DNA of 64,000 bases from Candidatus Omnitrophota bacterium (GCA_035368605.1 DAOSLF010000003.1:889-64888), one strand, 5' to 3'; counted from the first letter of the stretch, positions 21,656 to 58,201 are shown. Notes: a model not told the origin generated them from the letters alone. Made by a program: numbers and translations.

Positions 21656-24600
21656 CTAGAACTTCCCCGTCATCCGCACGAACGGACCGCTGTTATGATA
21701 ATTGTTCGCGTCCCGGAGGTCATCCGTAAAATCGGTAAAATTATAACCGATCCCGATCCGCACGTAATCATAGATTTCACGATCAACCTCGAAAAGCATC
21801 CCGTGCCGTATCGTATCGAGCGCGGAGGATTGCCACAAGAGCCGATATTCGGCCGCGATATCCCATTTCCGGGTCACATGGAAATTAATGCGGCTGACAG
21901 ACAAGAAATTACCGGTATCCGTCTCATCAAGCGTGTTACGGGCCAAAGTGAACAAGTCGCGATCCTGGGTGATCAGCGTTGCCCGTTTCCACGCCAGTTT
22001 CTGTGCGAGACCGAAGAACCGATTCACGTCATAGATCGCGTCCATTGAGATAACATGCGCGATCTCATGGAACATGTTTTCGTTGTAATAAGAATTCACG
22101 TACTGAAAATCATTTCCGATGTCTCTCAAATAGCTATACTTAAAGAGAAAATTCAGGTGGTCAAGACCAATAGGGCGATAGGCAAAAGCCACGGTAAAAT
22201 CCGCAAAATTCCCAAGATTTGTTTGCTTGCTTTCATCCACGAGATCGAAAAGATAGGTGGCGCCATAATCAAATTTGGTCAGAAAAGTCAGCTCGCGATG
22301 AATTTGATATTGAAATGAATTGCGCAAGACCAGCTGATTACCCTTGGGATACGCACCATTGCTTCTCAGTTCCGCATAAGTCCGCGCACGGAGTTTTCTG
22401 CCGTCCGCGTAGGCCAGATAGCCTCCATAAACGTTGGAGCTGTTATTCTGCGCCAGGCTATTTTCAACCAATGTCAGCAGATTCCGGGCCATCGAACTGT
22501 CCAAGTGCCGCCGCTCATACTTCGCGCCGTAATCCCAGTGGTCGTTCAGCGCGCCCTCATAGCCGAGAATATCCGCAAAACCATCCACGCCCTGGTAGGA
22601 GGAGTACTCGCGTTCCGAATAAATTCGCGATTTCTCGGTAAGCGAAAAAGAGCTCCCGATCGCGGTTGAGAGTGTCCTCGAACCAATGCCGCGGTCGATC
22701 GAGCGGAGGTTCGCATAGCTTCGCGCGCCGTTGCCGTGGTTCCTTTCGAAGCCGAAGTAGGTCGAATCCCCCAGCGGACCGAACATCTGCTCGATATAAC
22801 CGAAGACATCCTTGATCAGCTCGCAACGCACACCGCCGCCAAACTGGTAATTGTCCGCCGAGTGAAGAGTCGTTTGCGCTTTCACATACGGCAAGAGGCG
22901 GTCATTGATATGGTAGCCGATCTTGGTCGCGATGCCGTGCTCATAGGGGATTTCGGAATAAAGCGAGGGCGTCAGGTTGGCAGCGTCCTGGACTTGGTCG
23001 ATGTTGCTGCGCTGGTATTCGGCCTGGGCAAGGTATTTGCCGTTATCGTAGGCAAGCTGGGCCGTGTGGGTCTGCAGGTCTTCGTAAGGGGCCATGATAT
23101 TATGCTCGGCAAGAGGCATCAACTGGCCGATCACCTCGCTTGAATCGAAACGGTAGCGGGCCGAGAAATTATCGGTGAACTTGTAACGGCTCGCGAGACC
23201 GTATTTCTTGAAACCTTCCTGGCTCGTCATGTGGCCGTTCGAAAAACTCGGCTCCACGCCCTGGACGTAACCGCTCACTTCGAGGTTCCTCACGGGTTCC
23301 GACTGCGCGCGGATCAGGTAGGCGTCCTCGCGCGGCCGCGTGTTGTCCCCGCGCAGGTTCCCTTCCGTCCCGAAGCTGAGCCCTCCGTCGAAAGAGACCG
23401 AGGAATCCATCTGCTTGTTCGCGGTGGTCGCGTACTCCGCGGTGATCTTGGTGTTGCGGCCGAACTTCATCATCAGGTCAACGCCGCGCATGTCGTAATC
23501 GTTGCCGCCGGTCCGTTTTTCCTCGACCGCCGTTGCACCGAGCCTCACGTGATCGCCGGCCCACACGTAACCGCGCAGACCGCGGTTGCCGATCTCCGGA
23601 AGGTCCGACGAGGAAGGTTCATACTCGTAGTCCACGATCAGGTAAACGGGATTGCCGTCCATGATATCGGCCGAAACGAGCGAATCCGTCGCGGCGACGG
23701 ACGAGAGCGGGCGGGAAAGAAGGATGCGGCCTTCGGCGTAGCTGATCTCGTAATCCGTCCCTTCCGTCATGTCGTGGCTCGTCAGCACCATCCCCGTAAT
23801 CTTGTCGCGGATCTCGACGCGAATCTTTTCGCTACCTTCGATCAGGTTCCGGTTGCGCGTGTAGAAAAGGGAGCCGCCCGTCGCGTAGAACTCGTTATGG
23901 TCGGCCCGTTTGTCCGAATCAGCCCAGAAAAACCGGAGACCGCGCTTCGGGTCCCCGTAGACCGTGCTCGCGACCGAATCGAAACTCCCCTTGAGGCCGG
24001 AGAGCGTCCGGTTATAGGTGGCCAGTTCGGTATCCGTGAATTCCGTCTTGAAGCTCCCCCATTTCAGATAAGACTTGTCCATCTCGACCAGCACATAGAG
24101 CCGCTGGGCCGTGTCCTGCGCCTCGTAGTCGCGTGCCGAGTAGTCGCCGTAGACCGGATAGTATTCGTCAGGGTCGAGGTTCGTGAACAGCGCGGAACGG
24201 CGATCCGAGGTGTCGTAGTGAGCCTTGACGAGGAACTTCCCCTTGAGTTTCGATTTCAGGAAAAAGGCCGCGCGGCCGTCCTCGGTGAACCCGTCGCGGT
24301 AGGCGTCGGAATCCGCGGCTTCCATCGCCCCGTTCGCGAAATTGATGCCGAGCTGCTCCTCGCCAAGGGCGACCATGAAGAACGTGCTGTCCTTGACCTT
24401 GATCTTTTCCTGGTAGGTCGTGCTTTCCCCTTTCGGATCCGCGGCCATGATGTTGAACTCGTGCTCGCCGGGCTCGACGAAGAACTCCTTCTGGAACATG
24501 CCGGTCTCGGGGTCCACTGTCACGGGGAGGTCGTTGATCATGACCTGGTACTCGGGTCTTGTCTTGCCCTGGACCCGGACCGTCGGTTTCGCGATGAGGG

Positions 24601-26419
24601 GGATGCTGCGCTTGCCGTCCTTAAAGAGGTTGAAATCCCCGACCGCCGGAAGCTCGGGCTGGTAGTTCTTCTGGGCCCTGGGATCGAGCTTGTTGTAGAC
24701 CTCGAAGAACTTGAGGGTTGTCCAATCCTCGTGGTGCTTCGCATCGCGAACCTTGAGCTGGTACGAATAGACGCCGGGCTTGATCATGAAACCATTCTCG
24801 GCCTTCCCGTCCCACGTCACCTCCGCGGGCGGCGCACCGATGCCGTAACCGGTCCAGACGGGCACGCCCATTTCGTCGCGGACCTCGATGGCCCATTTCT
24901 TGACGAACCTGGCGTAATTGGTGTCGAGCCTGAAGAGCGCGTCCTTTTCGAGGACCCCGACGCCGAGCTTCAGGAGCTCCGGTTCCATCATAATGTCAAG
25001 GTCCGGCCGGGAGATATCAACCCCCTGCGTGACCATGACCATCAGGTCCTTGCGGAACGCCTCGGGAATGCCGGAGGGCGGGAGCAGGACGGCAAAACTC
25101 GCCTTGCCCATGAGACCGGGCGTGATCTTCACGAGATAGGTCTCTTCGGTGATGAATTTCGTTCCTTCGGGAAGCGTATGCCCGTCGATCTTGACGAGAT
25201 GGCGGCCCGGCGCGACGCCGGGGATGTGATAGCGGCCGTACTCATCGGTGACAACCTTGATGCCCTCTTCCGTATAAAGCGTCACCCACGGCACGCCCTC
25301 TTCACCGCATTGCTGGACGCCGTCCTGGTTAAGATCGTTAAAGACCTTGCCGATGATGGTCCCCTCCTCAAAGATCGGATCGCCCACGACCGTGAACTGC
25401 ACGTGCGCCGTTTCGGAAAGCGTGCCGCCGCTCCCCTCCACCGTAACCTCCAGCGAATATGTCTTCCCGAGCTGGACACCGCTCGTCACGAGCGTGGCAA
25501 ACGTCACGTCATACGAGGCGCCGGGTCCGATCGTCCCGAGCGGGATGAGCAGCGAGCCGTCCTGCCCGGCGACCGACTTCCCGTTCACGCGGATCGAATG
25601 CTCGGCGTAGTCGAACCCGTTCGGAATCTTGACCCGCATGTTCGAGTTCGTGAAGGTGTTGCCGGAACTATTCCGGAAATGCGCATTAATCCCGATCGCG
25701 TCTCCTTTCTTGATGTGACGCTTGGACGCCGCAACCGTAAGCTTTGCCGGATTCACTTCCGCGTTCAGATCGTCATACAGAATATTTCCATATCGGGGAA
25801 CTGCACCGGCGCTGACACCGTTGGCATCCAAAACAAAAACAACTTTGGCCGCATTTTCAGGAACGATCGCAGTTATCGAAAAGAGCGTCCAGACGCCCAC
25901 CGGAGCGGTGGCAGCAGTGATTTTTCCCGTTTCAACGGGAGTTCCGATTTTCACCCCGGAGGCGTCCTCGAACTCGATCTTCATTCTCCCCCCCGTGTCC
26001 GCTGCCATGATGTCCGATTGGGCATAGCCCGAGAAAGTAATGTAATCTCCCGGCTTCACGTTGCTGTAGGTCTGGAACGTGAAGGTGCTTTCATAAAAAG
26101 CCGGCGCGTCAAAATAGGCCTGCAAATAAAGCGCGTAGGAGCCGTTCCTCGGGGCGAGAAAACCGGGCGGCAACCCGGCGGGATTAACCACTCCATCCCA
26201 GCGCCCCATTTTGGCGGTCGTGTTCAAAGGCCTGGTGTTATCTGCCCAGTTATTCTGCGTCCCGTCCCCAAGCGGCTGTTCAAAACTCGGGTTGCCGAGC
26301 ACGTTGGCGAAGGCGGAAGGCGTAAAAGCGAAAAACAGCCACAAACCACAAAACCATACGGCAATACGAAGCCGGGGCGCTTTCTTGGCGGGCATGTGGT
26401 GTGTGGCGCGTGACATCAT
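21656..26419 (-). CDS. giant (1587 aa) outer-membrane-associated surface protein: CBM4/9-like N-terminal domain, DUF11-like and SdrD-B-like repeats, large C-terminal beta-barrel-like region
   Basis: A signal peptide (…FAFTPSAFA) is followed by NVLGNPSFEQ..., the hallmark opening of CBM4_9-type modules. KVFNDLNQDGVQQCGEEGVPWVTLYTEEGIKVVTDEYGRYHI matches the SdrD B-type (CnaB-like) repeat. The last ~900 aa are rich in Y/G/N/D with alternating hydrophobics and end ...VRMTGKF (terminal Phe, an OMP beta-barrel signature). The ATG immediately follows the stop of the upstream OMP gene. Confidence 0.6.
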   Translation of the reverse strand: MMSRATHHMPAKKAPRLRIAVWFCGLWLFFAFTPSAFANVLGNPSFEQPLGDGTQNNWADNTRPLNTTAKMGRWDGVVNPAGLPPGFLAPRNGSYALYLQAYFDAPAFYESTFTFQTYSNVKPGDYITFSGYAQSDIMAADTGGRMKIEFEDASGVKIGTPVETGKITAATAPVGVWTLFSITAIVPENAAKVVFVLDANGVSAGAVPRYGNILYDDLNAEVNPAKLTVAASKRHIKKGDAIGINAHFRNSSGNTFTNSNMRVKIPNGFDYAEHSIRVNGKSVAGQDGSLLIPLGTIGPGASYDVTFATLVTSGVQLGKTYSLEVTVEGSGGTLSETAHVQFTVVGDPIFEEGTIIGKVFNDLNQDGVQQCGEEGVPWVTLYTEEGIKVVTDEYGRYHIPGVAPGRHLVKIDGHTLPEGTKFITEETYLVKITPGLMGKASFAVLLPPSGIPEAFRKDLMVMVTQGVDISRPDLDIMMEPELLKLGVGVLEKDALFRLDTNYARFVKKWAIEVRDEMGVPVWTGYGIGAPPAEVTWDGKAENGFMIKPGVYSYQLKVRDAKHHEDWTTLKFFEVYNKLDPRAQKNYQPELPAVGDFNLFKDGKRSIPLIAKPTVRVQGKTRPEYQVMINDLPVTVDPETGMFQKEFFVEPGEHEFNIMAADPKGESTTYQEKIKVKDSTFFMVALGEEQLGINFANGAMEAADSDAYRDGFTEDGRAAFFLKSKLKGKFLVKAHYDTSDRRSALFTNLDPDEYYPVYGDYSARDYEAQDTAQRLYVLVEMDKSYLKWGSFKTEFTDTELATYNRTLSGLKGSFDSVASTVYGDPKRGLRFFWADSDKRADHNEFYATGGSLFYTRNRNLIEGSEKIRVEIRDKITGMVLTSHDMTEGTDYEISYAEGRILLSRPLSSVAATDSLVSADIMDGNPVYLIVDYEYEPSSSDLPEIGNRGLRGYVWAGDHVRLGATAVEEKRTGGNDYDMRGVDLMMKFGRNTKITAEYATTANKQMDSSVSFDGGLSFGTEGNLRGDNTRPREDAYLIRAQSEPVRNLEVSGYVQGVEPSFSNGHMTSQEGFKKYGLASRYKFTDNFSARYRFDSSEVIGQLMPLAEHNIMAPYEDLQTHTAQLAYDNGKYLAQAEYQRSNIDQVQDAANLTPSLYSEIPYEHGIATKIGYHINDRLLPYVKAQTTLHSADNYQFGGGVRCELIKDVFGYIEQMFGPLGDSTYFGFERNHGNGARSYANLRSIDRGIGSRTLSTAIGSSFSLTEKSRIYSEREYSSYQGVDGFADILGYEGALNDHWDYGAKYERRHLDSSMARNLLTLVENSLAQNNSSNVYGGYLAYADGRKLRARTYAELRSNGAYPKGNQLVLRNSFQYQIHRELTFLTKFDYGATYLFDLVDESKQTNLGNFADFTVAFAYRPIGLDHLNFLFKYSYLRDIGNDFQYVNSYYNENMFHEIAHVISMDAIYDVNRFFGLAQKLAWKRATLITQDRDLFTLARNTLDETDTGNFLSVSRINFHVTRKWDIAAEYRLLWQSSALDTIRHGMLFEVDREIYDYVRIGIGYNFTDFTDDLRDANNYHNSGPFVRMTGKF

Positions 26420-27994
26420 TTAAAACCGCCTGTGCGAGAACTTCATTCCAAAACGGAGGTCGTAACGGATGGCATCGGGAGCTTCCCCGTCCTGCTTGGA
26501 GTGCTGAACTTTACCGATCGCAAGCCATTCCCCGAAGATCGCTATTTTGGAAAGCCACTCGTCTTCTTTCCAGCGATAGGACCTGAACGGCATCCAGCGG
26601 ATTCCGGGAGCAAGGTAATACTGGTTTTGATAATGATAAGAGTATTCGTCATTGCTTGTATGCTCAAAACGGAGGTAAGGCATCAGGACCAATTCATCGT
26701 TGATCGGGTTATGCGGGAGCGGGATAGCGGGCAGCTTGATCCCCATGATCACGGAGGAGTTCAGAATCCAGGCGTTGAAATGACGCATCTCGCTAAAATC
26801 GGTTTTATGCCACCGGTAGTCGCCGAAATATTCGCCCCACACATATTGACGGAGATAATCGGCAAAACGTTCGGGCTTTCCTTCGTCCAGAGGCGGCAAC
26901 TCCGTGCCCCATTCATAGAAAATCTGAACCCCGGCAACCAGATCGTAGTCTTTCGCGTTCTGGATCTCGTCCTTGATGTTGTAACGGTTGCCGTATTTGA
27001 TATAGAACTTGTAATTCCGGACCCATTCAAGGAGCGGGATGTCCCAGCCGAACGGGCGGAAGTTGTAAAGCCAGGGATTGCGCGCGAAGGGACGCCATTC
27101 GAATCCGGCGAAGATATCGAAGTGGCTCTTGTAATCCGCCCCGACCGCTTCGATCGTTGTCGTCTCCTCGAAGAAGGGATCGATGGTGCTGAGCGGGGCG
27201 CGGATGCCTTTAAGGACGATGCGGTTCGTCCAGTAGCCGACCTGGCTGTTGAAGTTCCTGTTCTCGAGGTTGGTCATGCGGTAGGTTGTTTCGCCGAAGG
27301 ACTGCCACAGCACCGGTTCGCCGGCCGGCTCGCCCTGGAAGGGGCCCCACATCTTTTCCCCGAGATCGAGCTGGTCCGCGAATTTAAGAACGAGCTCTTC
27401 TTCCTTCTGGTACTGGGCCTTCGTCTTCACGGGCTCCGGTTTTTCAGGCGCGACAAACACCGGCACGGCCTGGACGCTCTTTGCGAAATTCCCGCCCTGG
27501 GATTCGATCCTCGATTTGACGCGGGTCACTTCCGCGGTCGCCTGGGCGGCCGTCGGGAAGGCCTTGTCCCCGACCCAGAAAAGATCGGACGTTCCCCCGC
27601 CCGCGAGCGGGAGGGGAAGTTTGCGGATCTCTACGCCTTCGAAATTCGCGACCTGCAGGTTCTTCTTGATGTATTCGTCGATCGCCTTGATGTCTTTCAG
27701 GCCGGGAAGGAAACGCGATCGGAGCGCGCCGCCCCCGAAATCTGTCACGATGGAATATTCGGCGTTCTGCGGCCGCGAGCGGGTCTTGATCACGGGAAAG
27801 CCGCGGACCCCGGAGACCTTCAGGTCGAGTTTCTGGCCGGACGGGGCGTAGAAATGCTCGGCGTAGAGATTTCTCCCGGGAGTTTCGGCCGGAGCGGCTT
27901 CAGGCTCGGTCGTCAGGATGCCCGCAAACGCAGGGGAGGAACAGAAAAGAACCGCGCTTGCCAAAACAGGGGGTATGAAATTTTTAAGTATCAT
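26420..27994 (-). CDS. outer-membrane beta-barrel protein (524 aa), hypothetical
   Basis: Signal peptide (…SSPAFAG), aromatic-rich alternating pattern, C-terminal ...KFSHRRF. The stop codon abuts the start of the giant surface-protein gene (TAA ATG ATG). Confidence 0.6.
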   Translation of the reverse strand: MILKNFIPPVLASAVLFCSSPAFAGILTTEPEAAPAETPGRNLYAEHFYAPSGQKLDLKVSGVRGFPVIKTRSRPQNAEYSIVTDFGGGALRSRFLPGLKDIKAIDEYIKKNLQVANFEGVEIRKLPLPLAGGGTSDLFWVGDKAFPTAAQATAEVTRVKSRIESQGGNFAKSVQAVPVFVAPEKPEPVKTKAQYQKEEELVLKFADQLDLGEKMWGPFQGEPAGEPVLWQSFGETTYRMTNLENRNFNSQVGYWTNRIVLKGIRAPLSTIDPFFEETTTIEAVGADYKSHFDIFAGFEWRPFARNPWLYNFRPFGWDIPLLEWVRNYKFYIKYGNRYNIKDEIQNAKDYDLVAGVQIFYEWGTELPPLDEGKPERFADYLRQYVWGEYFGDYRWHKTDFSEMRHFNAWILNSSVIMGIKLPAIPLPHNPINDELVLMPYLRFEHTSNDEYSYHYQNQYYLAPGIRWMPFRSYRWKEDEWLSKIAIFGEWLAIGKVQHSKQDGEAPDAIRYDLRFGMKFSHRRF

Positions 27995-46961: not shown

Positions 46962-49445
46962 CTAATCCAGAACGAGTTCGAAAAGGAGAGCGCGGGCTTT
47001 TTTGTTCCGGATCTTTTCGACGAGTTCTTCGACTTGCGCGGGGTCCGGTTTGATTTCGGGAGCGGATAAGGGGCCCGTGACCAGCATCGTGATCGGCCCC
47101 AGATGGGCACGCGTTTCCCTCCGAAAGGTTCCAGCCATCTCCGGAAAAATCTCCGCGGCAAGGGTCGTCGGAAAAAAAACATCCCACCGGAAATTCGTCA
47201 GGCCATCGAAACCAAGCGTACCTTCCCCAGCCACGACATAATCGGAACCCCTGGTCAGGAAGTTATCCGTCATGACCTTGCCGTCGAACAGACTCCAATT
47301 GAAATCCAGTTCGCTGAACGCGCCCGGGTCTTTCAACCGTTCACGGATACCGGAGAAAGGCGTAATAGTCGCCACAGCGCCGGGCAGATCAATGAAATTG
47401 ACCCGGCCGTTCGAAAGAGTAAAACGACCCTTTCCGCCGAGCAAACCAGCCCAGTTGTCTTTCCCCCAGCCATTTCCATGCAATGAGAACTTCAGGGTAA
47501 GCGATCCCGTCATCGGCGGCTGTTCCTGGCCCGAGCGGGTCAGAAAGGATGCAAAGTCCAGCCCCTTGGCCTCGCCTTCACAAAGGTACCCGATCGGTTT
47601 GGCTGAAAGGTCCAGCGACCCCGCCAGATCCAGCATTCCGCCATAAACCTGGGCGTGGAACTTGGGAACATCCCATTGCCCGTCCGAATAAGCCAGTTCC
47701 GCCGAAAAATCCTTGAGCGTCTGCCCCGAGGGGAACAAGTCTCCGATCGAGGTCTTCACATGGTCGAGCACGTCCCTGCCGGAGGCGAGATCGGCCTTTT
47801 TCCGGAAAAGCGCCATGACCGCGTCCCAGAATTCTTCCACTCGCAATTCCCCCGAAGAAAGACGGGCCCAGACCGCACTCTTCACACCCGGCTGGGTGAC
47901 CTTCAGGTCCGCGACCAGAGCGCTCCCTCCGATCTCGAACTTCATCTCCCGCCCTTCGAGCATGAGCGGGCTGTAATCGAAGGAAAAATTCGCGTTCCCG
48001 ACGCCCTTGCCGTCCTTGCCCGTCAAAGCGCCGTTCTCGATCGTCACATGAAAGATCTGCTCGGTCTTGTCAAAATGCCGGAGGTCCCCTTTCCAGTTCG
48101 CAAGCAACTTGGCATCACCGCGGACCTGGTATCCCTGGAGGGCGGGAACGAATTTCTCCCAGCCCGTCATGGAGAATTTGTTGGTCAGGAGATTCAACTG
48201 GCCGATGGCCGTCGCCATATCAAGGTCGGTCAGGTTCCCTTTGAGCGACATCTCCTGGAACCGCACGGAGAAATCTCCCGAAAGCACCGATCCCTTTTGG
48301 ACAAGATAATCAAAGGTCACGAGGAACGGAACATCCTTTGGCTTCGCGAAATAATTCCCGTATGTAAGAAGCGCAGGGCCGAAATCGAGATTAAGGTGGA
48401 GCGAAAGATGATCGAGGGTTCCTTCCAGGCTCAGGTTCCATTGGCTCATCCCCGAAAAACCAATCTGGAGCGGGAGGGCGTTCTCGACTCCGGGCCAGCA
48501 GGTGACGAGCTTTTCAAGCGCCACTTCCCTGGATGTAAAAAAGAGGCTTGGAATCTCACCCGTCCCGAGCTTGACGGTGCCGTTCGACTCGACCACCCCG
48601 AACGGGAAACGGAAAGAGGATTGGCTGACGGTCAGTTCCTCTGCCGACGCATTCCAGGCGCCGGTGATGTCCATATCGAGATCAAAAGGTTCCGGAGCAT
48701 TCCATAGTTGGCCGTTCAAAACCTCATAACTCAGCCCCACGATCCGCCCGGTCCCCGAGAAATTCATCGCGGCAACCTCGGGCTGTTTTTTGACCTCAAA
48801 GGAACCGTCCAGGATACCGTTCTTGAAAGCAAAAAAACGTCCCGCCTCACCCGCCATTTTTCCGGGGTTCACAAGCGGAAGTCCCTTGAAATCGATCAAT
48901 AACCGGACATTCGTTTTATTCCAGTCCGGTTTTTCGACCGACGGAATGACCACATGGCCTTTGACGCCAAGCGCTTCGGCCCGGTCACCGACATCGCTGG
49001 TCATCTGGACCGGGATGGGAAGGTTCGGGCGGATCGCACCCATTTTCAGCGCGACGTTGCGGAACTGGAGCGGACCGAGCACCGGGAACCAGGGAATGCC
49101 GGCATCAGCCTGGCCGCCGAAGACACAGATGCCGGACGGCTCAACCCTGCCCCACGCCATCGGGATGATATTGAAATCAAAACGTATCGAATCCGCGCGG
49201 ATCGTCGCGGATCCGTCCGTGAACGTCAGGGAAGGTTTCAAGAGAGAAATGGCCGGCTGCGGAAGGAATTTGATCTCGATCCCGTCATGGGAGACGAGCC
49301 CGCCGGAGACATTCTGGATTTTCTGGATGAGATAATCCTGAACCCTGGGCGAGCGGAGGAGACGATCGGACTGGAACCAGACAAAAGCGGCAAAGGCGAC
49401 CGCGGCGAGGAAAAGTAACAGGAAAAAGCGTGCGCCTTTCTTCAT
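46962..49445 (-). CDS. AsmA-family outer-membrane assembly/lipid-transport-like protein
   Basis: 827 aa. Single N-terminal TM (MKKGARFFLLLFLAAVAFAAFVWF) followed by a long beta-rich periplasmic region with AsmA-like N- and C-terminal segments. Confidence 0.6.
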   Translation of the reverse strand: MKKGARFFLLLFLAAVAFAAFVWFQSDRLLRSPRVQDYLIQKIQNVSGGLVSHDGIEIKFLPQPAISLLKPSLTFTDGSATIRADSIRFDFNIIPMAWGRVEPSGICVFGGQADAGIPWFPVLGPLQFRNVALKMGAIRPNLPIPVQMTSDVGDRAEALGVKGHVVIPSVEKPDWNKTNVRLLIDFKGLPLVNPGKMAGEAGRFFAFKNGILDGSFEVKKQPEVAAMNFSGTGRIVGLSYEVLNGQLWNAPEPFDLDMDITGAWNASAEELTVSQSSFRFPFGVVESNGTVKLGTGEIPSLFFTSREVALEKLVTCWPGVENALPLQIGFSGMSQWNLSLEGTLDHLSLHLNLDFGPALLTYGNYFAKPKDVPFLVTFDYLVQKGSVLSGDFSVRFQEMSLKGNLTDLDMATAIGQLNLLTNKFSMTGWEKFVPALQGYQVRGDAKLLANWKGDLRHFDKTEQIFHVTIENGALTGKDGKGVGNANFSFDYSPLMLEGREMKFEIGGSALVADLKVTQPGVKSAVWARLSSGELRVEEFWDAVMALFRKKADLASGRDVLDHVKTSIGDLFPSGQTLKDFSAELAYSDGQWDVPKFHAQVYGGMLDLAGSLDLSAKPIGYLCEGEAKGLDFASFLTRSGQEQPPMTGSLTLKFSLHGNGWGKDNWAGLLGGKGRFTLSNGRVNFIDLPGAVATITPFSGIRERLKDPGAFSELDFNWSLFDGKVMTDNFLTRGSDYVVAGEGTLGFDGLTNFRWDVFFPTTLAAEIFPEMAGTFRRETRAHLGPITMLVTGPLSAPEIKPDPAQVEELVEKIRNKKARALLFELVLD

Positions 49446-49496
49446 GCGGGCCGTCCTCGTATTAAATGACCGGTGACCTTCCGGAGCCAGCGACGG

Positions 49497-49627
49497 GCAT
49501 CAATAAGCGTTGCTGCTCATCTGGGACCCGCCGAGCGGCGAATAATTGTAATCCTGCAAAAACTGCTGGCAACCTGAACAGACCCATCCCAGCAGAACAA
49601 TCAGGGACAGGATCAGGAACTGACGCA
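49497..49627 (-). CDS. possible small lipoprotein (43 aa) immediately downstream of rpsI
   Basis: My translation is MRQFLILSLIVLLGWVCSGCQQFLQDYNYSPLGGSQMSSNAY. The ATG overlaps the rpsI TAA by 1 nt (TAATG). Lipobox-like VCSGC. Below the ORF-track length cutoff. Coordinates are approximate. Confidence 0.3.
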
Positions 49628-50020
49628 TTAACGCTTCGTATACTGGAAGCGACGGCGAGCGCCTTTGCGGCCAGCCTTTTTGCGCTCTTTTTCGCGGGGG
49701 TCGCGAGTAAGATAACCACCCTGACGCAACGTCGAGCGGCTGTCGGCGTTCAGTTCAAGAAGCGCTCTGGCGATCCCGAGACGGACCGCACCCGCCTGGC
49801 CCGCCGTTCCGCCGCCATCAACACGGGCACGGATGCGGACCTGGCCGAGGAGGTTCACCGCCTTGAGCGGCTGCTCCACGACCATCTGCAAATTGGCGCG
49901 TTTGAGATATTTATCAGAATCCTGGCCGTTGATCTTGAACCCTTTCTGTCCGGGGAAAATCCAGACACGGGCGATCGCGGATTTTCTGCGGCCGGTCGCG
50001 TAAATGGGAGCTGTTGCCAT
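49628..50020 (-). CDS. rpsI: 30S ribosomal protein S9
   Basis: ...GGGTAGQAGAVRLGIARAL... with a C-terminal RRFQYTKR. Confidence 0.95.
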   Translation of the reverse strand: MATAPIYATGRRKSAIARVWIFPGQKGFKINGQDSDKYLKRANLQMVVEQPLKAVNLLGQVRIRARVDGGGTAGQAGAVRLGIARALLELNADSRSTLRQGGYLTRDPREKERKKAGRKGARRRFQYTKR

Positions 50021-50022
50021 CT

Positions 50023-50454
50023 TCAGGAAACCTCGATTTGAATCGGCTTTTGAGCCTTGTGGTTATAGTCAGGACCGGCGAACACGCGAAGACGTTTGGC
50101 CATCACATCCCCGTTCCGGGTCTTGGGAAGCATGCGGGTCACGGCCTTCGTGATAACATCGGCCGGCTTTTTCTCCATGAGCTCTTCGAGCGTCACTGAG
50201 TGAAAGCCGCCGGAATACCCGGACCAGCGGGTGTAGACCTTCTGTTCTTTTTTTTTGCCGGTCACGCGGATTTTCGCGGCATTGATCACGATGACCTGAT
50301 CGCCCGTAATCTGATCTTTCGCAAAGCAAGCCTTGCCTTTCCCGATCAGAAGGGACGCTGCCTTCGTGGCCAGACGCCCGAGGGTCTTCCCCGATGCGTC
50401 GATGAGATAAACCTTGCGGTTGATGTCCTTTTCCTTAGGAATAAACGTTTTCAT
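50023..50454 (-). CDS. rplM: 50S ribosomal protein L13
   Basis: MKTFIPKEKDINRKVYLIDASGKTLGRLAT... is the canonical L13 N-terminus. Confidence 0.95.
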   Translation of the reverse strand: MKTFIPKEKDINRKVYLIDASGKTLGRLATKAASLLIGKGKACFAKDQITGDQVIVINAAKIRVTGKKKEQKVYTRWSGYSGGFHSVTLEELMEKKPADVITKAVTRMLPKTRNGDVMAKRLRVFAGPDYNHKAQKPIQIEVS

Positions 50455-50613
50455 AACTCTCTTCTCTTGAATGAATTGGCACCGCTTCTCCTGTTCTACA
50501 GGCTAGCGTCGCAACGCCATTTACCCATAAAATCACACGGAAAACAGTGTTAGGGAAAAATCACTACGGAGGAAATCTTCCCGCGACTCGAAGTGTCCCG
50601 AAAAAGTTCGCAG

Positions 50614-50642
50614 AGTATACCAAAGCACCCCTGCGGTGTCAA
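50614..50642 (-). promoter_or_regulatory. putative sigma70 promoter of rplM-rpsI (TTGACA-17-TATACT)
   Basis: The minus strand reads TTGACAccgcaggggtgctttggTATACT about 160 nt upstream of the rplM ATG. Confidence 0.5.
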
Positions 50643-50699
50643 ACGTTTACCCTCTTTTTTTTATTGGACGGACCGGAAGACACGACCGCCAAAAACTCC

Positions 50700-50742
50700 C
50701 GGAAATATTCGCAAATGACCCCGAACCCGAAGGTCCGGGGTC
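50700..50742 (-). terminator. rho-independent terminator of the giant repeat-protein gene (UUCG-loop hairpin)
   Basis: Minus-strand RNA: gaccccggacc-UUCG-gguucgggguc (one G.U), followed by auuugcgaauauuu. It begins ~33 nt after the stop at 50775. Confidence 0.6.
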
Positions 50743-50774
50743 ATTCACAGCCGTCCCGTCCGAAGATCCCACCA

Positions 50775-53700
50775 TTACTGTTTAAAGGAAGCCCACTTCC
50801 TCGTGACCGGATCATAGCTTTTCAGCACGGATCTCCTTCCGGACTTAACCGTATAGATCTCTTTCAGGCCGGTAGCCGTCATGACGTAATAGAGCCCCGA
50901 GCGGTATCCCCTCCGGTCCTGCGAGCTCGGCTTCTCGGAAACCGCGCCCGTCGTAAGGTTCATGACCCGGACCTTGTTTCCTGAGATCGTCTGATACGCC
51001 AACGTCGCAAGCGACGGAACGGCGGTCCATCCCGCAGGGATGGGCCGCGGCACGATCTTGAGCGTGTTCATGTCGACCCAGGTCTGCGAGCCGTTCGTTT
51101 TGGTGATCACTGCGTTCATTCCTTCAAAAACAACCGACTTTGCCGCTCCGGAGACCCTCAGCTTTTGGGTCGCGTCCGCGATCTTTTGCACATAGATACT
51201 TCTCGGAGCAATGCCGTAGACCACGGTTGCGCCGTCAGGAGAAACGTCATAGACGCTGCTGACCGGAACCGTCGAATACCGCCCCCCTTTATAAACCTTG
51301 AATAGTACCTTCGACTCTCCTGTCTTCAGATCCAGCAGGATCAGCTTGCTATATCTATTCACGGTCTCGATCTTGAACGCGTAGTTCACGTTCGATGCCG
51401 CCCGAGTCCAGCCGGCGGGCAAAGGAGGATCCATCAACTGCAGCGTGTCGAGATCCACATACTTTGTTTCCACCGCTCCGCCCGAATGCGTGACCGTGCA
51501 GACCGCGACACTTCCCCGGTACTCCACAGCGGTTACGGCTCCCGAAAGCGTCATTTGCGCGGCAGTTCCCAGATTGATGATGAAGGTCTTGCTGTAATCC
51601 GCATCCCCGTTGCCGGTCGCGGAAACACCGACCGTCAGAACGGTCTTCCCGGAGGGCGTCCGGTACACATCGATCGTTCGATACGAACCCGACCCCGAAC
51701 TCCCGCCCGCCGCCTGGCTCGCCGGATAAAAAATCTTGACCGGCGTCAGAACCAGGTGCTCCGTCCCGGCGGAAGCATCATAGACAAACACTTCGTAGGT
51801 GTTGCTGTAGGTGATCTTCGTCGGAACAATGAGATACCCCTCATCCAGCACCGCATCCGCCTGCTCGAGAAGCGTGTGGTGAGACAAAGTGCTTGCGAGG
51901 GTCGTTTGATCCACCACATAAACATCCCCGATCCGGGTGCCGTTCCGGTAAGCCGTAGCCATTACCACCGAAACATTCCCGTCAGAGAGAAAACCGACGC
52001 TCTGGGGAATACCCGTGATGTCCGCATGTTTCGTGGCATCACCAACCTGCTGAACACGCAGCCAGCCCGTTGCCGGGGTGGCGTAATCGTTCCGCACGCC
52101 GAAATAAACCAGCTCGCCGCTCGGGGAAATGTCCATCGAGGTATAACTGTTCGGCGGCGATTGGAGAGAATAGAGTTCCCGGATCTCGCCGGTCCCGAGG
52201 TCCTGGATTTTTAATCTCGTGTAGTTGCCATGATTGTCCGGATTGATCCAATCCTCGGTCATAAACGCATAATTCGCATTACCCGCCGCCCGAGTCCAGC
52301 CGGCGGGCAAAGGAGGATCCATCAACTGCAGCGTGTCGAGATCCACATACTTTGTTTCCACCGCTCCGCCCGAATGCGTGACCGTGCAGACCGCGACACT
52401 TCCCCGGTACTCCACAGCGGTTACGGCTCCCGAAAGCGTCATTTGCGCGGCAGTTCCCAGATTGATGATGAAGGTCTTGCTGTAATCCGCATCCCCGTTG
52501 CCGGTCGCGGAAACACCGACCGTCAGAACGGTCTTCCCGGAGGGCGTCCGGTACACATCGATCGTTCGATACGAACCCGACCCCGAACTCCCGCCCGCCG
52601 CCTGGCTCGCCGGATAAAAAATCTTGACCGGCGTCAGAACCAGGTGCTCCGTCCCGGCGGAAGCATCATAGACAAACACTTCGTAGGTGTTGCTGTAGGT
52701 GATCTTCGTCGGAACAATGAGATACCCCTCATCCAGCACCGCATCCGCCTGCTCGAGAAGCGTGTGGTGAGACAAAGTGCTTGCGAGGGTCGTTTGATCC
52801 ACCACATAAACATCCCCGATCCGGGTGCCGTTCCGGTAAGCCGTAGCCATTACCACCGAAACATTCCCGTCAGAGAGAAAACCGACGCTCTGGGGAATAC
52901 CCGTGATGTCCGCATGTTTCGTGGCATCACCAACCTGCTGAACACGCAGCCAGCCCGTTGCCGGGGTGGCGTAATCGTTCCGCACGCCGAAATAAACCAG
53001 CTCGCCGCTCGGGGAAATGTCCATCGAGGTATAACTGTTCGGCGGCGATTGGAGAGAATAGAGTTCCCGGATCTCGCCGGTCCCGAGGTCCTGGATTTTT
53101 AATCTCGTGTAGTTGTTACGATTGTCCGGATTGATCCAATCCTCGGTCGCAAAAGCATAATTCGCATTACTCGCCGCTCGAGTCCAGCCCTGGGGGATTG
53201 CCGGGACATGATAAAGGTCCATCGTCCCCTGGAGGCCTATCCCCTCAATGATGACATAGATCGTTCGCACTTTCGAAAGATCGACCTGCTGGAACAGTGT
53301 CGCGGGAATCCGGTAAATGTTTTCCTCGCCGGATTCGATACCCGTCAAATGGACAAAAGCCTTCTGGTCATTTGCGTCCACAAATTCCAGTTTGATGGTT
53401 CCGGCGGTTCCCTTGAGCCCGAAAACAAACTCACTGAAACCGCTGAGGTCGTTCGTTTCAATCTCCGGAGTTCCGTAATGGTCGAACGTCAATCCCCCGC
53501 CAGCCCAACCGAATATGCCTGTGTTGTAGGTGAAAGAGCCCCCTCGGCCGTGCGCCGTCGCGGCGGCATTCGCATCCCCTCCATAAATCACCGTGATCAC
53601 CGGATTCCCGGGCAGGGGCGTCAGATTCTCGGAGGTCAGGAAAGTATCCGGGAGGATTTTCGGCTTGTAAGGATGTTCTCCCAACCGCACCTGGAGTTCC

Positions 53701-54917
53701 CCTGTCGGCTGCGAGACGCCATGGCTCTCCACGACCACGTTGATGTTCGTGATCCGGTGGAGGTCGAGCCCGGGATTGTTCGCGAGAAGTTCGCTCATCG
53801 GTATCGCGTAAAACTGCTCCGATGTTCCGACATCCGCCAGATGGACGACCCCCTTGTTCCGGGCCGCATCCTCAAATTCCACCTTGATCCGCCCGCTACC
53901 GCTCGACAGCCTGAGGCCCAGCACAAGGTTCGCCATTCCGGTCAAATCCCTGGACTCCACCGCCGGCGTCCTGTAATCATCGAATGACGTCACCCCCGCC
54001 GCCCAGCCGGCGCTCGGCGGCAGAGCGTAAGAGAGCGTGTAAAGCGATGAACTCTGCTGCGAAACCTCTCCAAAGGCGCCTTCGGGGCCCGCGACATCGA
54101 TCAGATGATGGATTCCGGAAAAAGTGCTCACGTCTGCCGGTGTCAGGGCCGGATTGGAAACGACCACCGGCGTATACGCCAAGCCCGCGGTCTCGATCTC
54201 GACCGTGCCGCTGGATCCCGCGTTCGCCTTATCCGCAACAAAAACGATCTCGCGAATCCGGGTCGCATCAAGCTGCGGGGAAAGCGTCTGGAGCGTGGTG
54301 GAAGAAATAACGTAATTTTTGAAATCGCTGGTGAGGGTGAGCGGAACAGTGGCCACATGATTCGAGACATCTTTGATCTCCAGCTTGAGCGTGGCGTCCG
54401 GGGTCCCTTTAGCCGCGACCGTCAGCCCGGAGGCTGAAAGATTCATCGGAGCCGACCCGGAGAGATAAACGAACGCGAAATCATCGCTGTCCAGGTTGCT
54501 GTATTGCATCTGGATGTTTCGGGAAGAGGTCTGATGGACCTGAAGAGTCCCGCTCACCACAGTTTCCCCGCTGCCGACGCCGGATCCGATCACCGGTCTG
54601 TCAGGCAACACGGTAATCCGGGAAGGATCATAGGCGGCCGTTGTGAAATTCTGCGTATCGCTTGCTGCCGACAAGGGGCTAACGCTTTGAGTAACAGAAC
54701 CGGAAGGAACGGCTTTCGTATCAGAAACCGTTTTTGAATTCGCCTCCGCAAGGGTCCTCGTCCGGATATGGTCGCGCCCGGTCAAATACCCATGGGCCGC
54801 GAAGGAAGTGGGCACAGGAATCCCGTTAAAAATAAAAAGGACGGTTACGAGATACGCAACCGTCCTTTGCATAAGTCCGTTTTTGACACCTCTAATTTCA
54901 TTTTTCTGTGCGTCCAT
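50775..54917 (-). CDS. giant (1380 aa) secreted protein with beta-propeller-like (TolB/WD40-like) repeats and ~296-aa tandem repeat units
   Basis: Signal peptide (…VAYLVTVLFIFNGIPVPTSFAAHG). AAGGGGTG SD. Contains two nearly identical ~296-aa units (PAGWTRAA.NANYAF.TEDWINPDN...SMDISPSGELVYFGVRNDYATPATGWLRVQQ...) followed by diverged copies 3 and 4. DISPSGELVYF and DVSPDGATVVYG resemble TolB-type propeller blades. Confidence 0.6.
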   Translation of the reverse strand: MDAQKNEIRGVKNGLMQRTVAYLVTVLFIFNGIPVPTSFAAHGYLTGRDHIRTRTLAEANSKTVSDTKAVPSGSVTQSVSPLSAASDTQNFTTAAYDPSRITVLPDRPVIGSGVGSGETVVSGTLQVHQTSSRNIQMQYSNLDSDDFAFVYLSGSAPMNLSASGLTVAAKGTPDATLKLEIKDVSNHVATVPLTLTSDFKNYVISSTTLQTLSPQLDATRIREIVFVADKANAGSSGTVEIETAGLAYTPVVVSNPALTPADVSTFSGIHHLIDVAGPEGAFGEVSQQSSSLYTLSYALPPSAGWAAGVTSFDDYRTPAVESRDLTGMANLVLGLRLSSGSGRIKVEFEDAARNKGVVHLADVGTSEQFYAIPMSELLANNPGLDLHRITNINVVVESHGVSQPTGELQVRLGEHPYKPKILPDTFLTSENLTPLPGNPVITVIYGGDANAAATAHGRGGSFTYNTGIFGWAGGGLTFDHYGTPEIETNDLSGFSEFVFGLKGTAGTIKLEFVDANDQKAFVHLTGIESGEENIYRIPATLFQQVDLSKVRTIYVIIEGIGLQGTMDLYHVPAIPQGWTRAASNANYAFATEDWINPDNRNNYTRLKIQDLGTGEIRELYSLQSPPNSYTSMDISPSGELVYFGVRNDYATPATGWLRVQQVGDATKHADITGIPQSVGFLSDGNVSVVMATAYRNGTRIGDVYVVDQTTLASTLSHHTLLEQADAVLDEGYLIVPTKITYSNTYEVFVYDASAGTEHLVLTPVKIFYPASQAAGGSSGSGSYRTIDVYRTPSGKTVLTVGVSATGNGDADYSKTFIINLGTAAQMTLSGAVTAVEYRGSVAVCTVTHSGGAVETKYVDLDTLQLMDPPLPAGWTRAAGNANYAFMTEDWINPDNHGNYTRLKIQDLGTGEIRELYSLQSPPNSYTSMDISPSGELVYFGVRNDYATPATGWLRVQQVGDATKHADITGIPQSVGFLSDGNVSVVMATAYRNGTRIGDVYVVDQTTLASTLSHHTLLEQADAVLDEGYLIVPTKITYSNTYEVFVYDASAGTEHLVLTPVKIFYPASQAAGGSSGSGSYRTIDVYRTPSGKTVLTVGVSATGNGDADYSKTFIINLGTAAQMTLSGAVTAVEYRGSVAVCTVTHSGGAVETKYVDLDTLQLMDPPLPAGWTRAASNVNYAFKIETVNRYSKLILLDLKTGESKVLFKVYKGGRYSTVPVSSVYDVSPDGATVVYGIAPRSIYVQKIADATQKLRVSGAAKSVVFEGMNAVITKTNGSQTWVDMNTLKIVPRPIPAGWTAVPSLATLAYQTISGNKVRVMNLTTGAVSEKPSSQDRRGYRSGLYYVMTATGLKEIYTVKSGRRSVLKSYDPVTRKWASFKQ
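51401..53176. repeat. two tandem copies of an 888-bp unit (near-100% identical) inside the giant propeller-repeat gene
   Basis: Period 888 nt (cccgagtccagcc... begins at 51401, 52289 and, diverged, at 53177). The antisense ORFs 51486..52214 and 52374..53102 translate identically over 242 aa, which means at least 726 nt of exact identity. A few substitutions lie near one unit edge. Confidence 0.85.
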
Positions 54918-55021
54918 GACCGCACCCCCTTGTTTTCATTTTTTTATATCCTTAAAGCTCATCATTAAATTCTTTTTTAAATATCTTTAAAAGTATTCCA
55001 AAAAAACCGTCGGCAAGCCGA

Positions 55022-55049
55022 ATATTAACACATTTTAATCCAATGTCAA
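55022..55049 (-). promoter_or_regulatory. putative strong sigma70 promoter (TTGACA-16-TGtTAATAT, extended -10) in AT-rich region upstream of giant repeat-protein gene
   Basis: The minus strand reads TTGACAttggattaaaatgtgtTAATAT about 100 nt upstream of the ATG at 54917. It lies within a 170-bp AT-rich intergenic stretch (54918-55087). Confidence 0.5.
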
Positions 55050-55087
55050 GGCGCGGATATTTCTTGCTATGAAAAACACCACTTCCG

Positions 55088-55846
55088 CTAGTAGAAAACC
55101 TTTATCAGGGTGAGCCCGCAGGAGGGTATTGTTTGCCCGGAAAAACAGCGGGATTTCGCCTTTAGCATGGAAGGGATATCGGAGGGTTGACGTTTCCCCC
55201 TCCCTACTTCGAGAAGGGTCCCCATAATGTTGCGGACCATGTGATAGAGAAAGCCGTCGCCTTCAAAGCGGAAGACCAGAAGACCATTCTCCTTTTTGAT
55301 CCGGATGGGCCTGAGCGTCCTGGTAAAGCTGACTTTCCTGGAACTTCTGCCTTTAAGAACGGCCGCCTCTGAAGTGAAGGACCGGAAGTCGTGACGACCG
55401 GACAGATGTCTCGCGGCTTTACGCATCGCGGCAAGGTCCAAGCGGAACGGAACGTGGTAGGCTCGGCCGGCAAGGAGGGGCGCGCGAAAAGGGCTGTTCC
55501 AGACGCGATATTCATAAACTTTGGACCGGGCACTGTAGCGCGCGTGAAAATCCGCTGGAACTTCCACGGCTGACTTTACAACGATGGCGGACGGGAGATA
55601 GGCATTCACGCCCCTCTGGATATGCGAAAGCTCGCGTCCGCTGCCGGTCCTGAAATTGACGACCTGCCCTTCCGCGTGAACGCCGGTATCCGTGCGACCG
55701 CTCGCGGCGGAGATCTTCACCGGATGGTCGAAAAACGCGGAAAGGGCCTTTTCGAGGGCTTCCTGGACCGTCGGCTTGCCGGGCTGGCGCTGAAATCCGA
55801 AAAACGCGGCGCCGTCGTATTCCAATACCAGTTTGATGTTTCTCAT
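55088..55846 (-). CDS. truA: tRNA pseudouridine(38-40) synthase
   Basis: MRNIKLVLEYDGAAFFGFQRQ...RTDTGVHAEGQV is the TruA catalytic Asp region. Confidence 0.9.
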   Translation of the reverse strand: MRNIKLVLEYDGAAFFGFQRQPGKPTVQEALEKALSAFFDHPVKISAASGRTDTGVHAEGQVVNFRTGSGRELSHIQRGVNAYLPSAIVVKSAVEVPADFHARYSARSKVYEYRVWNSPFRAPLLAGRAYHVPFRLDLAAMRKAARHLSGRHDFRSFTSEAAVLKGRSSRKVSFTRTLRPIRIKKENGLLVFRFEGDGFLYHMVRNIMGTLLEVGRGKRQPSDIPSMLKAKSRCFSGQTIPSCGLTLIKVFY

Positions 55847-55894
55847 ATTGTTGCGGGAAGCGCGGGGAAAATTTCGATCTGGCTATTCCACACT

Positions 55895-56911
55895 TTACGC
55901 TAACCGCCAGTCCTTAAAAAGAACTTCCGCAATCTGGACCGCGTTCGTCGCCGCGCCTTTACGGATCTGGTCGCCGGAGACGAACATCGCCAGCCCGTTC
56001 GTCACGCTTGAATCGACGCGCAGTCGGCCGACATGGATATCGTCCTGACCCGTCGTTTCAAGCGGCATCGGGAAATAATTCCTCTCGCGGTCGTCAACGA
56101 TCTTCACGCCCGGCGCTTTCGCGAGAAGGACGCGTGCGTCATCCGGCGTGATGGGTTTTTCGGTCTCGATATGCAGCGCTTCGGAATGCGCCCGGAGTAC
56201 CGGAACACGCACACAGGTCGCCGAGATCCGGATATCGGAATCGTGGAAGATCTTTTTGGTCTCCTTGATCATCTTGGTCTCTTCCTCGTTGTAGCCGTCG
56301 GGCCCGATCCCGGAGTTGTGCGAGAATACGTTGAATGCGATCTGGTGCGGCAGGACATTTTTCTGAACGGGACGTCCCGCCAGGAAATCCCGGGCCTGGA
56401 TCCGGAGCTCTTCCATCGCCTTCGCGCCGGCACCGCTCGCGGCCTGATAGGTCACTGCGACAAAGCGCTTGATCTTCACGGCCTTGTGGATCGGCCAAAG
56501 CGGAACAAGTGCGATGATCGTGGAGCAGTTCGGGTTCGCGATGATCCCTTTGTGCTTCGCAATGTCCTCGGGGTTGATCTCAGGGATCACAAGCGGAACC
56601 TCCGGATCCATCCGGAACGCGCTTGTGTTATCCACGACCACCGCGCCCGCCTTCACGGCGTACGGCGCGAGGGCTTTCGAGATCGATCCGCCCGCACTCG
56701 CGAACACGAGGTCGATTCCCTCGAAAGAATCCGGTGTCGCTTCTTCGATCTTGTACGTCTTCCCCATGAATTTCTGCTCTTTCCCCGCCGAACGACCGGA
56801 CGCGAGCAGTTTGAGCGACGCGAACGGGAACTTTCGTTCCTCAAGGATGGCCAAAAGTTCCTGACCGACAGCGCCGGTGACGCCGAGAATTGCAATATCG
56901 GGTTTTTTCAT
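55895..56911 (-). CDS. asd: aspartate-semialdehyde dehydrogenase
   Basis: MKKPDIAILGVTGAVGQELL... N-terminal Rossmann segment, the catalytic Cys region (NPNCSTI) and full-length Asd similarity. Confidence 0.9.
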   Translation of the reverse strand: MKKPDIAILGVTGAVGQELLAILEERKFPFASLKLLASGRSAGKEQKFMGKTYKIEEATPDSFEGIDLVFASAGGSISKALAPYAVKAGAVVVDNTSAFRMDPEVPLVIPEINPEDIAKHKGIIANPNCSTIIALVPLWPIHKAVKIKRFVAVTYQAASGAGAKAMEELRIQARDFLAGRPVQKNVLPHQIAFNVFSHNSGIGPDGYNEEETKMIKETKKIFHDSDIRISATCVRVPVLRAHSEALHIETEKPITPDDARVLLAKAPGVKIVDDRERNYFPMPLETTGQDDIHVGRLRVDSSVTNGLAMFVSGDQIRKGAATNAVQIAEVLFKDWRLA

Positions 56912-57118
56912 ATTAACGCACAGCGTAGAGCGTTTGGCGCTCGGGATTCAGCATCCGCCACGGCACGCTCCCCGCCTCCTTTATCAGTTATTCAGCGATT
57001 CTGCTTTCACCGAAACCCAAATCGACGCTGATTCGGCATTGAGCTTCCATTTCACGAAGGAATCCGCGGGCGATCGACAAGAAATGGCTCTGTTCTTTTA
57101 TAAAACTTCGCCCGCCCC

Positions 57119-58201
57119 CTACGATATACGTTCCGTTACAAGATCACCCATTTTCACACAACCGACCCTGGTCGTGCCTTCCGCGTAAATATCCGCGGTG
57201 CGATAGCCGTCGGCAAGGACCTTCTCGACCGCCGCCTCGATCGCGCGCGCGGCCTTCGGCTGGTCAAAACTGTGTTCCATCATCATCGCGACCGAGAGGA
57301 TCGTCGCGAGAGGATTCGCGATGTCCTTGCCCGCGATGTCGGGCGCCGAACCGTGTACCGGTTCGTACATCGCCACCTTGTCGCCGACCGAAGCCGACGG
57401 CAGCATCCCGATCGAGCCCGTGAGCATCGCGGATTCGTCGCTCAGGATGTCCCCGAAGAGATTGCTTGTGACGATCACGTCGAACTGTTTCGGGTCGCGG
57501 ATCAGCTGCATCGCGCAATCATCCACATAACGATGTGAGAGTTCGACATCCGGGAAACCATTCGCAACCTCGATCACCACCTTGCGCCAGAGCTGACTCA
57601 CGTCGAGGACATTGGCCTTGTCAACCGAAGTCACTTTTTTCCGCCGCTTCCGGGCGAATTCGAAGGCCCTCCGCGCGATCCGCGCGATTTCAGGCGTCGT
57701 GTAGCTCATCGTATTGAAACCCCGCTCCGTGCCGTCGGGAAGTTTTTCGATCCCGCGAGGCGAACCGAAATAAACGCCGCTCACGAGCTCTCGCAGGATG
57801 ATGAAATCGAGGCCCTCGACGATCTCTTCCCTGATCGGCGAACGGGATGCGAGCTGCGGGAACATCTTCACGGGACGGACGTTCGCATAGGCGTTAAGCC
57901 CCTTGCGGAGCCCGAGCAATCCTTTTTCCGGACGCTTATCCGAGGGCAGGCTGTCCCATTTCGGGCCGCCGACCGCGCCGAGAAAAACCGCGTCGGCTTT
58001 CTGGGCCTTCGCAAGGGTCTCGGGCGTGAGAGGGACGCCAAATTGATCGATGGAAGCACCACCGGCCAGAAGTTCCTCGGTCTCGAATCTGAGACCGGTC
58101 TTGGGCTCGACCTTCCGCAGGACCTTCATGGCCTGCGCCGTTACTTCGACTCCGATACCGTCACCGGGAAATACTGCTATTTTGTACATGGGATGGGTCA
58201 C
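57119..58201 (-). CDS. leuB: 3-isopropylmalate dehydrogenase
   Basis: [16 protein letters not shown]..., the [11 protein letters not shown] motif and GSAPDIAGK are LeuB-type signatures of the isocitrate/isopropylmalate DH family. Confidence 0.85.

Follow-up and report, generated by a model that had tools for sequence, protein, structure and literature searches.

In the Periscope Proteins (SasG/Aap, Rib/alpha C and the SHIRT arrays of Sgo_0707), the number of repeats varies between close strains, and intragenic recombination between DNA-identical repeats, which alters the projection of a binding domain, has been proposed; the arrays consist of small Ig-like or G5/E-type stalk domains and can be large, with more than 40 repeats in one case (Whelan et al., 2021; PMC8201768). 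From the Omnitrophota, large repetitive extracellular proteins have been described that are partly similar to carbohydrate-binding modules (CBMs) and partly composed of unannotated beta-rich modules, with a proposed role in attachment to host or prey and with local assembly errors (West-Roberts et al., 2023 preprint; 10.1101/2023.11.21.568195). The subject of this analysis is a gene encoding 1380 amino acids (aa) in a 64,000-nt stretch of DNA from a Candidatus Omnitrophota bacterium (GCA_035368605.1, DAOSLF010000003.1:889-64888), hereafter the window, which carries two adjacent and almost identical units of 888 nt. These units are genuine: a whole folded module has been duplicated in tandem and in frame. 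The explanation preferred here, to which a probability of roughly 0.6 is given as a whole, is that the duplication took place before the strains diverged, that the interiors of the two copies have been kept alike by conversion, and that units are gained and lost by exchange.

In a comparison of the window with itself shifted by 888 nt, 877 of 888 bases matched, with an exact run of 831 nt (51397-52227 = 52285-53115) followed by a short stretch matching in part, with a further run of 29 nt. A chance origin of an exact repeat of 831 nt is impossible. The same spacing was given by a separate repeat search of the window; Tandem Repeats Finder, for which the longest period was 500, was silent on the repeat, and the offset comparison was used instead. 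A sequence-only reading of the window had claimed an exact match of at least 726 nt within two 888-nt units at 51401-53176, inside a gene of 1380 aa. The match is thus somewhat stronger than claimed, the span agrees with the true repeat to within a few bases, and the open reading frame (ORF) at 50775-54917 (-) indeed encodes 1380 aa, with the repeat in frame. Framed on a recurring P.GWT motif, the two copies, U1 and U2 in gene order, were 98.8% identical, and all 11 differences among the 888 nt fell within unit positions 1-80, for which the chance under an even spread is about 3e-12. The remaining 808 nt of the interior were free of differences, and the proteins differed at four residues (U1 585-880 against U2 881-1176). 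The features of the gene and its upstream region are listed below.

50775-54917 (-): host gene, 1380 aa, modular, probably secreted or at the surface, of Candidatus Omnitrophota (ORF list and translation)
54795-54917 (-): N-terminal extended signal-like region, aa 1-41 (motif conserved in distant family members)
54138-54620 (-): module A, aa ~100-260, a distant relative of B and C (BLASTP of A against C)
53598-54110 (-): module B, aa ~270-440, 'GWAAG...FDDY', carbohydrate-binding-like (similarity of B to C)
53196-53597 (-): module C, aa 441-574, 'GWAGGG...FDHY', carbohydrate-binding-like (segment BLAST and weak CBM matches)
52308-53195 (-): U1, aa 575-870, first 888-nt/296-aa copy, following module C, with start variant a at 53116-53195
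51420-52307 (-): U2, aa 871-1166, second copy, with start variant b at 52228-52307, the duplication junction
51039-51419 (-): U3, aa 1167-1293, a short form of the module of 127 aa, with start variant c
50778-51038 (-): U4, aa 1294-1380, a conserved C-terminal module of 87 aa that starts with PAGWT and is otherwise distinct
52285-53115 (-): exact 831-nt repeat, upstream copy in gene order, inside U1
51397-52227 (-): exact 831-nt repeat, downstream copy in gene order, covering most of U2 and the first 23 nt of U3
55022-55049 (-): promoter-like site TTGACA-16-TAATAT with TG, ~100 nt upstream of the start codon (consensus scan only, in which such sites were no more numerous than in shuffled sequence)

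Three antisense ORFs also lie over the repeat region, at 51486-52214, 52230-53102 and 53208-53987 (+), with 242, 290 and 259 aa; they are without support and most likely follow from the composition of the sense gene.

The unit starts were named a (U1, after module C), b (U2, after a unit end) and c (U3), and the repeat itself R. The left side of junction b was equal to c, up to ...GGCTGGACTCGGGCGGC, and its right side resembled a. Within 56 nt past the crossover point, b carried five to six private and mostly non-synonymous substitutions, among them AGT>GGT, GCG>ATG and CGTAAC>CATGGC, which are absent from both a and c and change S to G, A to M, R to H and N to G. Because these substitutions occur in neither parent, an assembler could not have invented b. 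The same b, without a single difference, was recovered in three separate assemblies, namely the window, contig L001 (ERZ2648042) and contigs L007/L008 (ERZ772708). Within ERZ772708, the contig that links start a to truA ended exactly 55 nt past the last base telling a from b, and the contig that links b-R-c to rplM started exactly 55 nt before the first base telling b from c. Such contig ends are the signature of a k=55 graph in which a true repeat is entered from both a and b. The minimal path through the genome is a-R-b-R-c, and at least two tandem units are real.

Two points would favor the view that the two units of the window are an assembly artefact, whether by false expansion or by the joining of two strains or paralogues into a chimera: identical interiors with shared haplotypes are the product expected of repeated traversal of a graph, and the two-unit contig L001 had a k-mer coverage of only 2.4x. 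This is nevertheless very improbable in view of b, which stands between a unit end and a unit interior, is distinct, returns in separate assemblies, and shares contig L008 with U3 and rplM. Neither the module nor the N-terminal motif occurs elsewhere in the 64-kb window. An independent duplication of the same style was moreover present in a relative, P0032 (909 aa), in which two short modules at residues ~236-821 are duplicated in tandem as a unit of 293 aa. Its copies differed at 13 residues, ten of them in the first 38 and three in the last six, with none between (39-287). Near-identical in-frame tandem duplications were found in P0032, P0060, P0073 and P0052, with periods of 293, 143, 446 and 324 aa, respectively. 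In this family, whole modules have therefore been duplicated repeatedly and recently, with edges that diverged, which argues against a one-off artefact.

The sequence-only reading had called the latest duplication very recent, and this is doubtful. A simple duplication so young that its copies have had no time to diverge, with no homogenisation, would agree with the absence of differences over 808 nt and with the left part of b, which equals the start of U3 as a single unequal crossover predicts. Such an origin is improbable, since it leaves the private substitutions of b to be explained. The four replacements in b are derived: at these positions the outgroup P0023 agrees with a in having S, A and RN. 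Strains varied at eight interior sites. Two contigs contain both units; within each of them the copies shared one haplotype, and between them three of the eight sites differed. As strains with differences at these interior sites and in the flanks have b in common, the duplication is older than the strain split and older than the polymorphisms; even so, in any one strain the allele is the same in both copies. The identical interior is due either to gene conversion that fades near the edge of homology or to an assembler reading one graph node twice. One-unit alleles occurred on haplotypes interspersed with those of two-unit alleles, which fits recurrent loss by unequal exchange.

The exact protein of the window fell within a public 90%-identity cluster of 15 sequences, in which the named members were proteins of Candidatus Omnitrophota metagenome-assembled genomes (MAGs). 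This cluster held 1380-aa forms (the window and P0017) and a 1365-aa version with a later start, 1084-aa forms (P0001, P0016, P0019 and P0021) and their 1069-aa later-start versions, as well as fragments beginning or ending at the repeat. The 1084-aa form is shorter than the 1380-aa form by exactly 296 aa, or one unit, and one-unit forms outnumbered two-unit forms. The variation in copy number foreseen by the sequence-only reading thus has a counterpart among deposited proteins, which come from short-read assemblies in which collapse is possible. Scans of Joint Genome Institute (JGI) metagenomes and of GTDB genomes returned only distant relatives.

At the DNA level, eight contigs (L001-L008) were compared, all of them from short-read metagenome assemblies. 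Two units were present in L001 (SPAdes) and one unit in L002 (GCA_029553765.1), L003, L004 and L006 (MEGAHIT) and L005 (SPAdes). L007 (GCA_035411025.1) has a gap of 100 N within the repeat, and L008 (SPAdes, ERZ772708) starts just upstream of the U1/U2 junction, so that the repeat is the assembly hazard that had been suspected. The three MEGAHIT k141 contigs, of up to 129 kb, ran unbroken through a-R-c on three haplotypes. MEGAHIT outputs unitigs, and a b branch at appreciable depth should break the contig; unbroken a-R-c contigs therefore argue for real one-unit genotypes. These independent contigs, together with the greater number of one-unit forms in the cluster, make it unlikely that all genomes of the species have at least two units, with the 1084-aa forms being collapses of a fixed duplication without copy-number variation. 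In favor of such collapses, the exact repeat of 831 nt exceeds short reads and typical inserts, one MAG is gapped and one SPAdes contig broken exactly at the repeat, and the JGI fragments P0013 and P0014 begin at the boundary between the R end and c, suggesting that the graph branches in those samples too. Over about 9.2 kb of flanks, the one-unit L002 also matches the window at 100% identity, which a very recent deletion and a different assembly of the same population explain equally well. Overall, copy-number variation of the unit between strains is probably real.

The explanation preferred above, that of an early duplication with interior conversion and later exchange, can be laid out in steps. 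The chimeric junction b would most likely have arisen before the sampled strains diverged, when two different modules recombined unequally at their conserved P.GWTRAA-coding starts. The 808-nt interiors would most likely then have been kept identical by gene conversion between the copies, and the edge next to non-homologous sequence would have been left to diverge. The 831-bp identity may serve as a substrate for homologous unequal exchange or for replication slippage, through which whole 888-bp units would be deleted or added to give the 1084-aa and 1380-aa alleles, and possibly longer ones. Length may in turn affect binding or reach. Several points weigh against this explanation. In the assemblies, on which the analysis is based, interior identity and shared haplotypes would also arise if an assembler crossed a single node twice after bubble removal, so that concerted evolution is likely but not proven. 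One-unit contigs could be collapses, as the identity of L002 fits the same reads assembled in two ways; the argument from unbroken MEGAHIT contigs presumes that the assembler splits a contig at a b branch; and the true copy number could be greater than two. Finally, the putative surface location is read from the N-terminal hydrophobic region, with no anchor or sorting signal found by Pfam or NCBIfam.

Segment-against-segment BLAST placed three modules of ~150 aa (A, B and C) ahead of U1. Module B was 37% identical to C (E 1e-19), with which it shares the motif GWAGGG...FD.[FY], and A was 27% identical to C (BLASTP E 7e-5). A profile of 11 modules of this type, module C of the window among them, matched the CBM32 of 4a3z weakly (E 0.014). 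Among these 11 members, one matched CBM_11 (E 0.0027) and one CIA30 (E 0.0036), and module C of the window itself had no CBM match in that scan. No convincing family was found in Pfam and NCBIfam scans of the 1380-aa protein, nor did these detect an anchor or sorting domain. A TOBE_2 match (24.3 bits; two stretches, one in each copy, the best of 30 aa) was rejected as a chance match to beta strands.

Each of the four units U1-U4 starts with P.GWT. U3 was 31% identical to the first ~100 aa of U1 (BLASTP E 2e-10; phmmer 3e-13), their resemblance at the DNA level being limited to 17 nt at the start. U4 resembled U1 at the motif level only and was conserved at the C-termini of P0022 and P0032, and also inside P0004. 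The view of the sequence-only reading that units 3 and 4 are progressively diverged copies of the 888-nt unit therefore does not hold, as U3 matches only the beginning of the unit and U4 is a distinct C-terminal module. The expansion by successive in-frame duplications that it proposed was recovered in another form. In relatives, the basic module of the family has ~120-150 aa (about 125 aa) and starts with P.GWTRAASN.N[YF]AF. The long unit of 296 aa is a conserved type, 54% identical in P0023 and also present in P0025 and P0026. Its second half (aa ~180-296) matched the profile of the short module from position 27 on (hhalign probability 89%, E 2.3e-6), so that the long unit is an old double module, composed of one module and a degenerate second copy, that was later duplicated as a whole.

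With an 18-row family alignment, the AlphaFold2 model of U1 had a predicted local distance difference test score (pLDDT) of 92.7 and a predicted template modelling score (pTM) of 0.82, and was all-beta, with 23 strands in 296 aa (DSSP). In Foldseek comparisons, the template modelling (TM) scores of this model were 0.19-0.32, and its top structural matches were propellers, every one. A three-module model of U2+U3+U4 (pLDDT 87.8, pTM 0.64) gave as its best matches at low root-mean-square deviation three-blade fragments of propellers (6r5z, 2yms and 3s25), with 106-111 residues at 3.2-3.3 Å. Four-stranded antiparallel blades, as in beta-propellers, were present in the unit; a closed toroid of 4-10 blades was not seen in the models. 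The PD40 and WD40 models of Pfam had no match at E <= 1, and a weak profile match to a TolB-family protein with PF07676 (E 4.7e-5) covered 15% of the query. We conclude from the models that the short module would correspond approximately to a propeller-type arc of three blades, and the 296-aa unit to two such arcs without a closed ring; of the term "propeller-repeat" used in the sequence-only reading, the blades thus hold and the ring does not. Because the unit alone is predicted with confidence, gain or loss of one unit should leave a foldable protein.

The N-terminal region runs from a basic stretch through the hydrophobic TVAYLVTVLFIFNGIPVPTSFA to A-H-G (aa 1-41). As judged from this layout, it would be a signal peptide or anchor, and the protein is probably secreted or on the cell surface. 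The motif K.G..[QD]K.VA...T.FFIF.GIP.P.SFA was common to P0002, P0003, P0022, P0024-P0026, P0045, P0081 and P0101. In these proteins the N-terminal ~45 aa were kept almost residue for residue, the rest being 25-45% identical. Conservation of this kind is unusual for an ordinary signal peptide, and may reflect a dedicated targeting signal or be a by-product of an RNA hairpin encoded there. The start codon differs among public annotations (54873-54917, -), with MDAQKNE... for the 1380- and 1084-aa forms and MQRTVAY... for the 1365- and 1069-aa forms (NCBI and JGI). The sequence favors the upstream start as the probable one, because the prefix MD.KK...K.G is conserved in orthologues.

The hairpin resembles a terminator and lies at 54836-54868 (-), over codons ~17-31, with a 14-bp stem (AAAGGACGGTTGCG/CGTAACCGTCCTTT) followed by a T-run (TTATTTTT). 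Folded as RNA, 111 nt around it reached -36.3 kcal/mol (z = -3.8). The same codons in four diverged orthologues formed a stem of 10-12 bp followed by a T-run, despite differing nucleotides and amino acids, at these positions:

L009, ~2770-2830: hairpin in orthologue
L013, ~1560-1620: hairpin in orthologue
L014, ~4060-4120: hairpin in orthologue
L016, ~140-200: hairpin in orthologue

In the alignment of the five sequences, 90% of cells paired, compared to 41-59% when the 3' partners were slid by 1-3 columns. Four pairs changed on both sides, and none of 500 shuffles (0/500) reached the covariation score observed for these five sequences. Rfam gave nothing at the gathering threshold in the window, and only the sub-threshold L20_leader and snR83 in the region of the gene. 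The hairpin may act as an intragenic attenuator or make translation pause.

In the window, the gene (X) stands in the order truA - X - rplM - rpsI - small ORF - asmA-like, and its orthologues occupy the same place wherever their contigs reach. The order leuB-asd-truA-[surface protein]-rplM-rpsI-small ORF-asmA-like was kept across Omnitrophota species (window 46962-58201 compared with L013, L014 and L016). A comparison with orthologues, which the sequence-only reading had suggested, found proteins at this position from 792 to 1964 aa long with different numbers of modules. Those sharing the N-terminus were P0002 (1600 aa), P0003 (1964 aa), P0022 (833 aa), P0024 (792 aa) and P0025 (823 aa), and their numbers of CBM-like and P.GWT modules differed widely. 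The surface-protein gene is thus a hypervariable gene amid housekeeping genes. A profile search with the long unit matched 482 cluster representatives at E <= 1e-3, 46 of them at E <= 1e-30, in proteins of up to 5354 aa; the best-scoring ones were matched in up to six separate stretches. The module family is without annotation.

Elsewhere in the window, a second large ORF (21656-26419, -; 1587 aa) had a borderline match to an SdrD_B-like domain (E 8e-7), which suggests that it may encode another surface protein similar to fibrillar adhesins. The neighboring ORF of 524 aa (26420-27994, -) had no Pfam match.

One practical consequence is that short-read assemblies cannot be trusted for the length of this gene: 1084-aa, 1380-aa and gapped versions are all on deposit for one species. 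Provided that the variation is real, this gene becomes a candidate determinant of cell-cell attachment, in a phylum discussed as host-dependent or predatory, and a natural marker for strain tracking. A more speculative and doubtful proposal is that truA-rplM is a contingency-type locus, encoding an undescribed surface family of three-blade arcs and CBM-like modules in which rapid change of module number, through recombination of DNA-identical units, would tune attachment to host or prey, perhaps with expression gated by the hairpin.

Beta-propellers of the PD40/TolB and WD40 types are reported to grow by blade amplification (Pereira & Lupas, 2022, as cited in 10.1101/2023.11.21.568195). The blades of PD40/TolB-type propellers are similar to those found here, whereas both ring closure and the Pfam match fail for the unit. 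The Omnitrophota proteins of West-Roberts et al. are from the same phylum and are likewise long, composed of repeated unannotated beta-rich or CBM-like modules and prone to local assembly errors. They differ in reaching tens of thousands of residues, compared to 1.4 thousand here, and in having dockerin, C39 or S8 domains, which the present protein is without; its gene also stands at the conserved housekeeping locus truA-rplM. The closest described class is that of the Periscope Proteins. The unit of 296 aa with propeller-type blades is unlike their Ig-like or G5/E-type stalk domains, two near-identical copies stand here against their large arrays, and a C-terminal wall anchor was not detected. 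The variable modules follow the putative binding modules on the C-terminal side, and the host is an uncultured diderm of the Omnitrophota and not a pathogen. Periscope rods are elongated and project a distal domain; a rod shape and a placement of the repeats between anchor and tip would be conjecture for the present protein, whose three-module model has a pTM of 0.64. What is shared are tandem folded domains that are nearly identical in DNA, here in two copies only, a probable surface location, and apparent variation in length. The phenomenon is thus of a known kind, and its probable occurrence in this gene would extend near-identical surface domains of variable copy number, known mainly from pathogens, to an uncultured lineage of the Omnitrophota.

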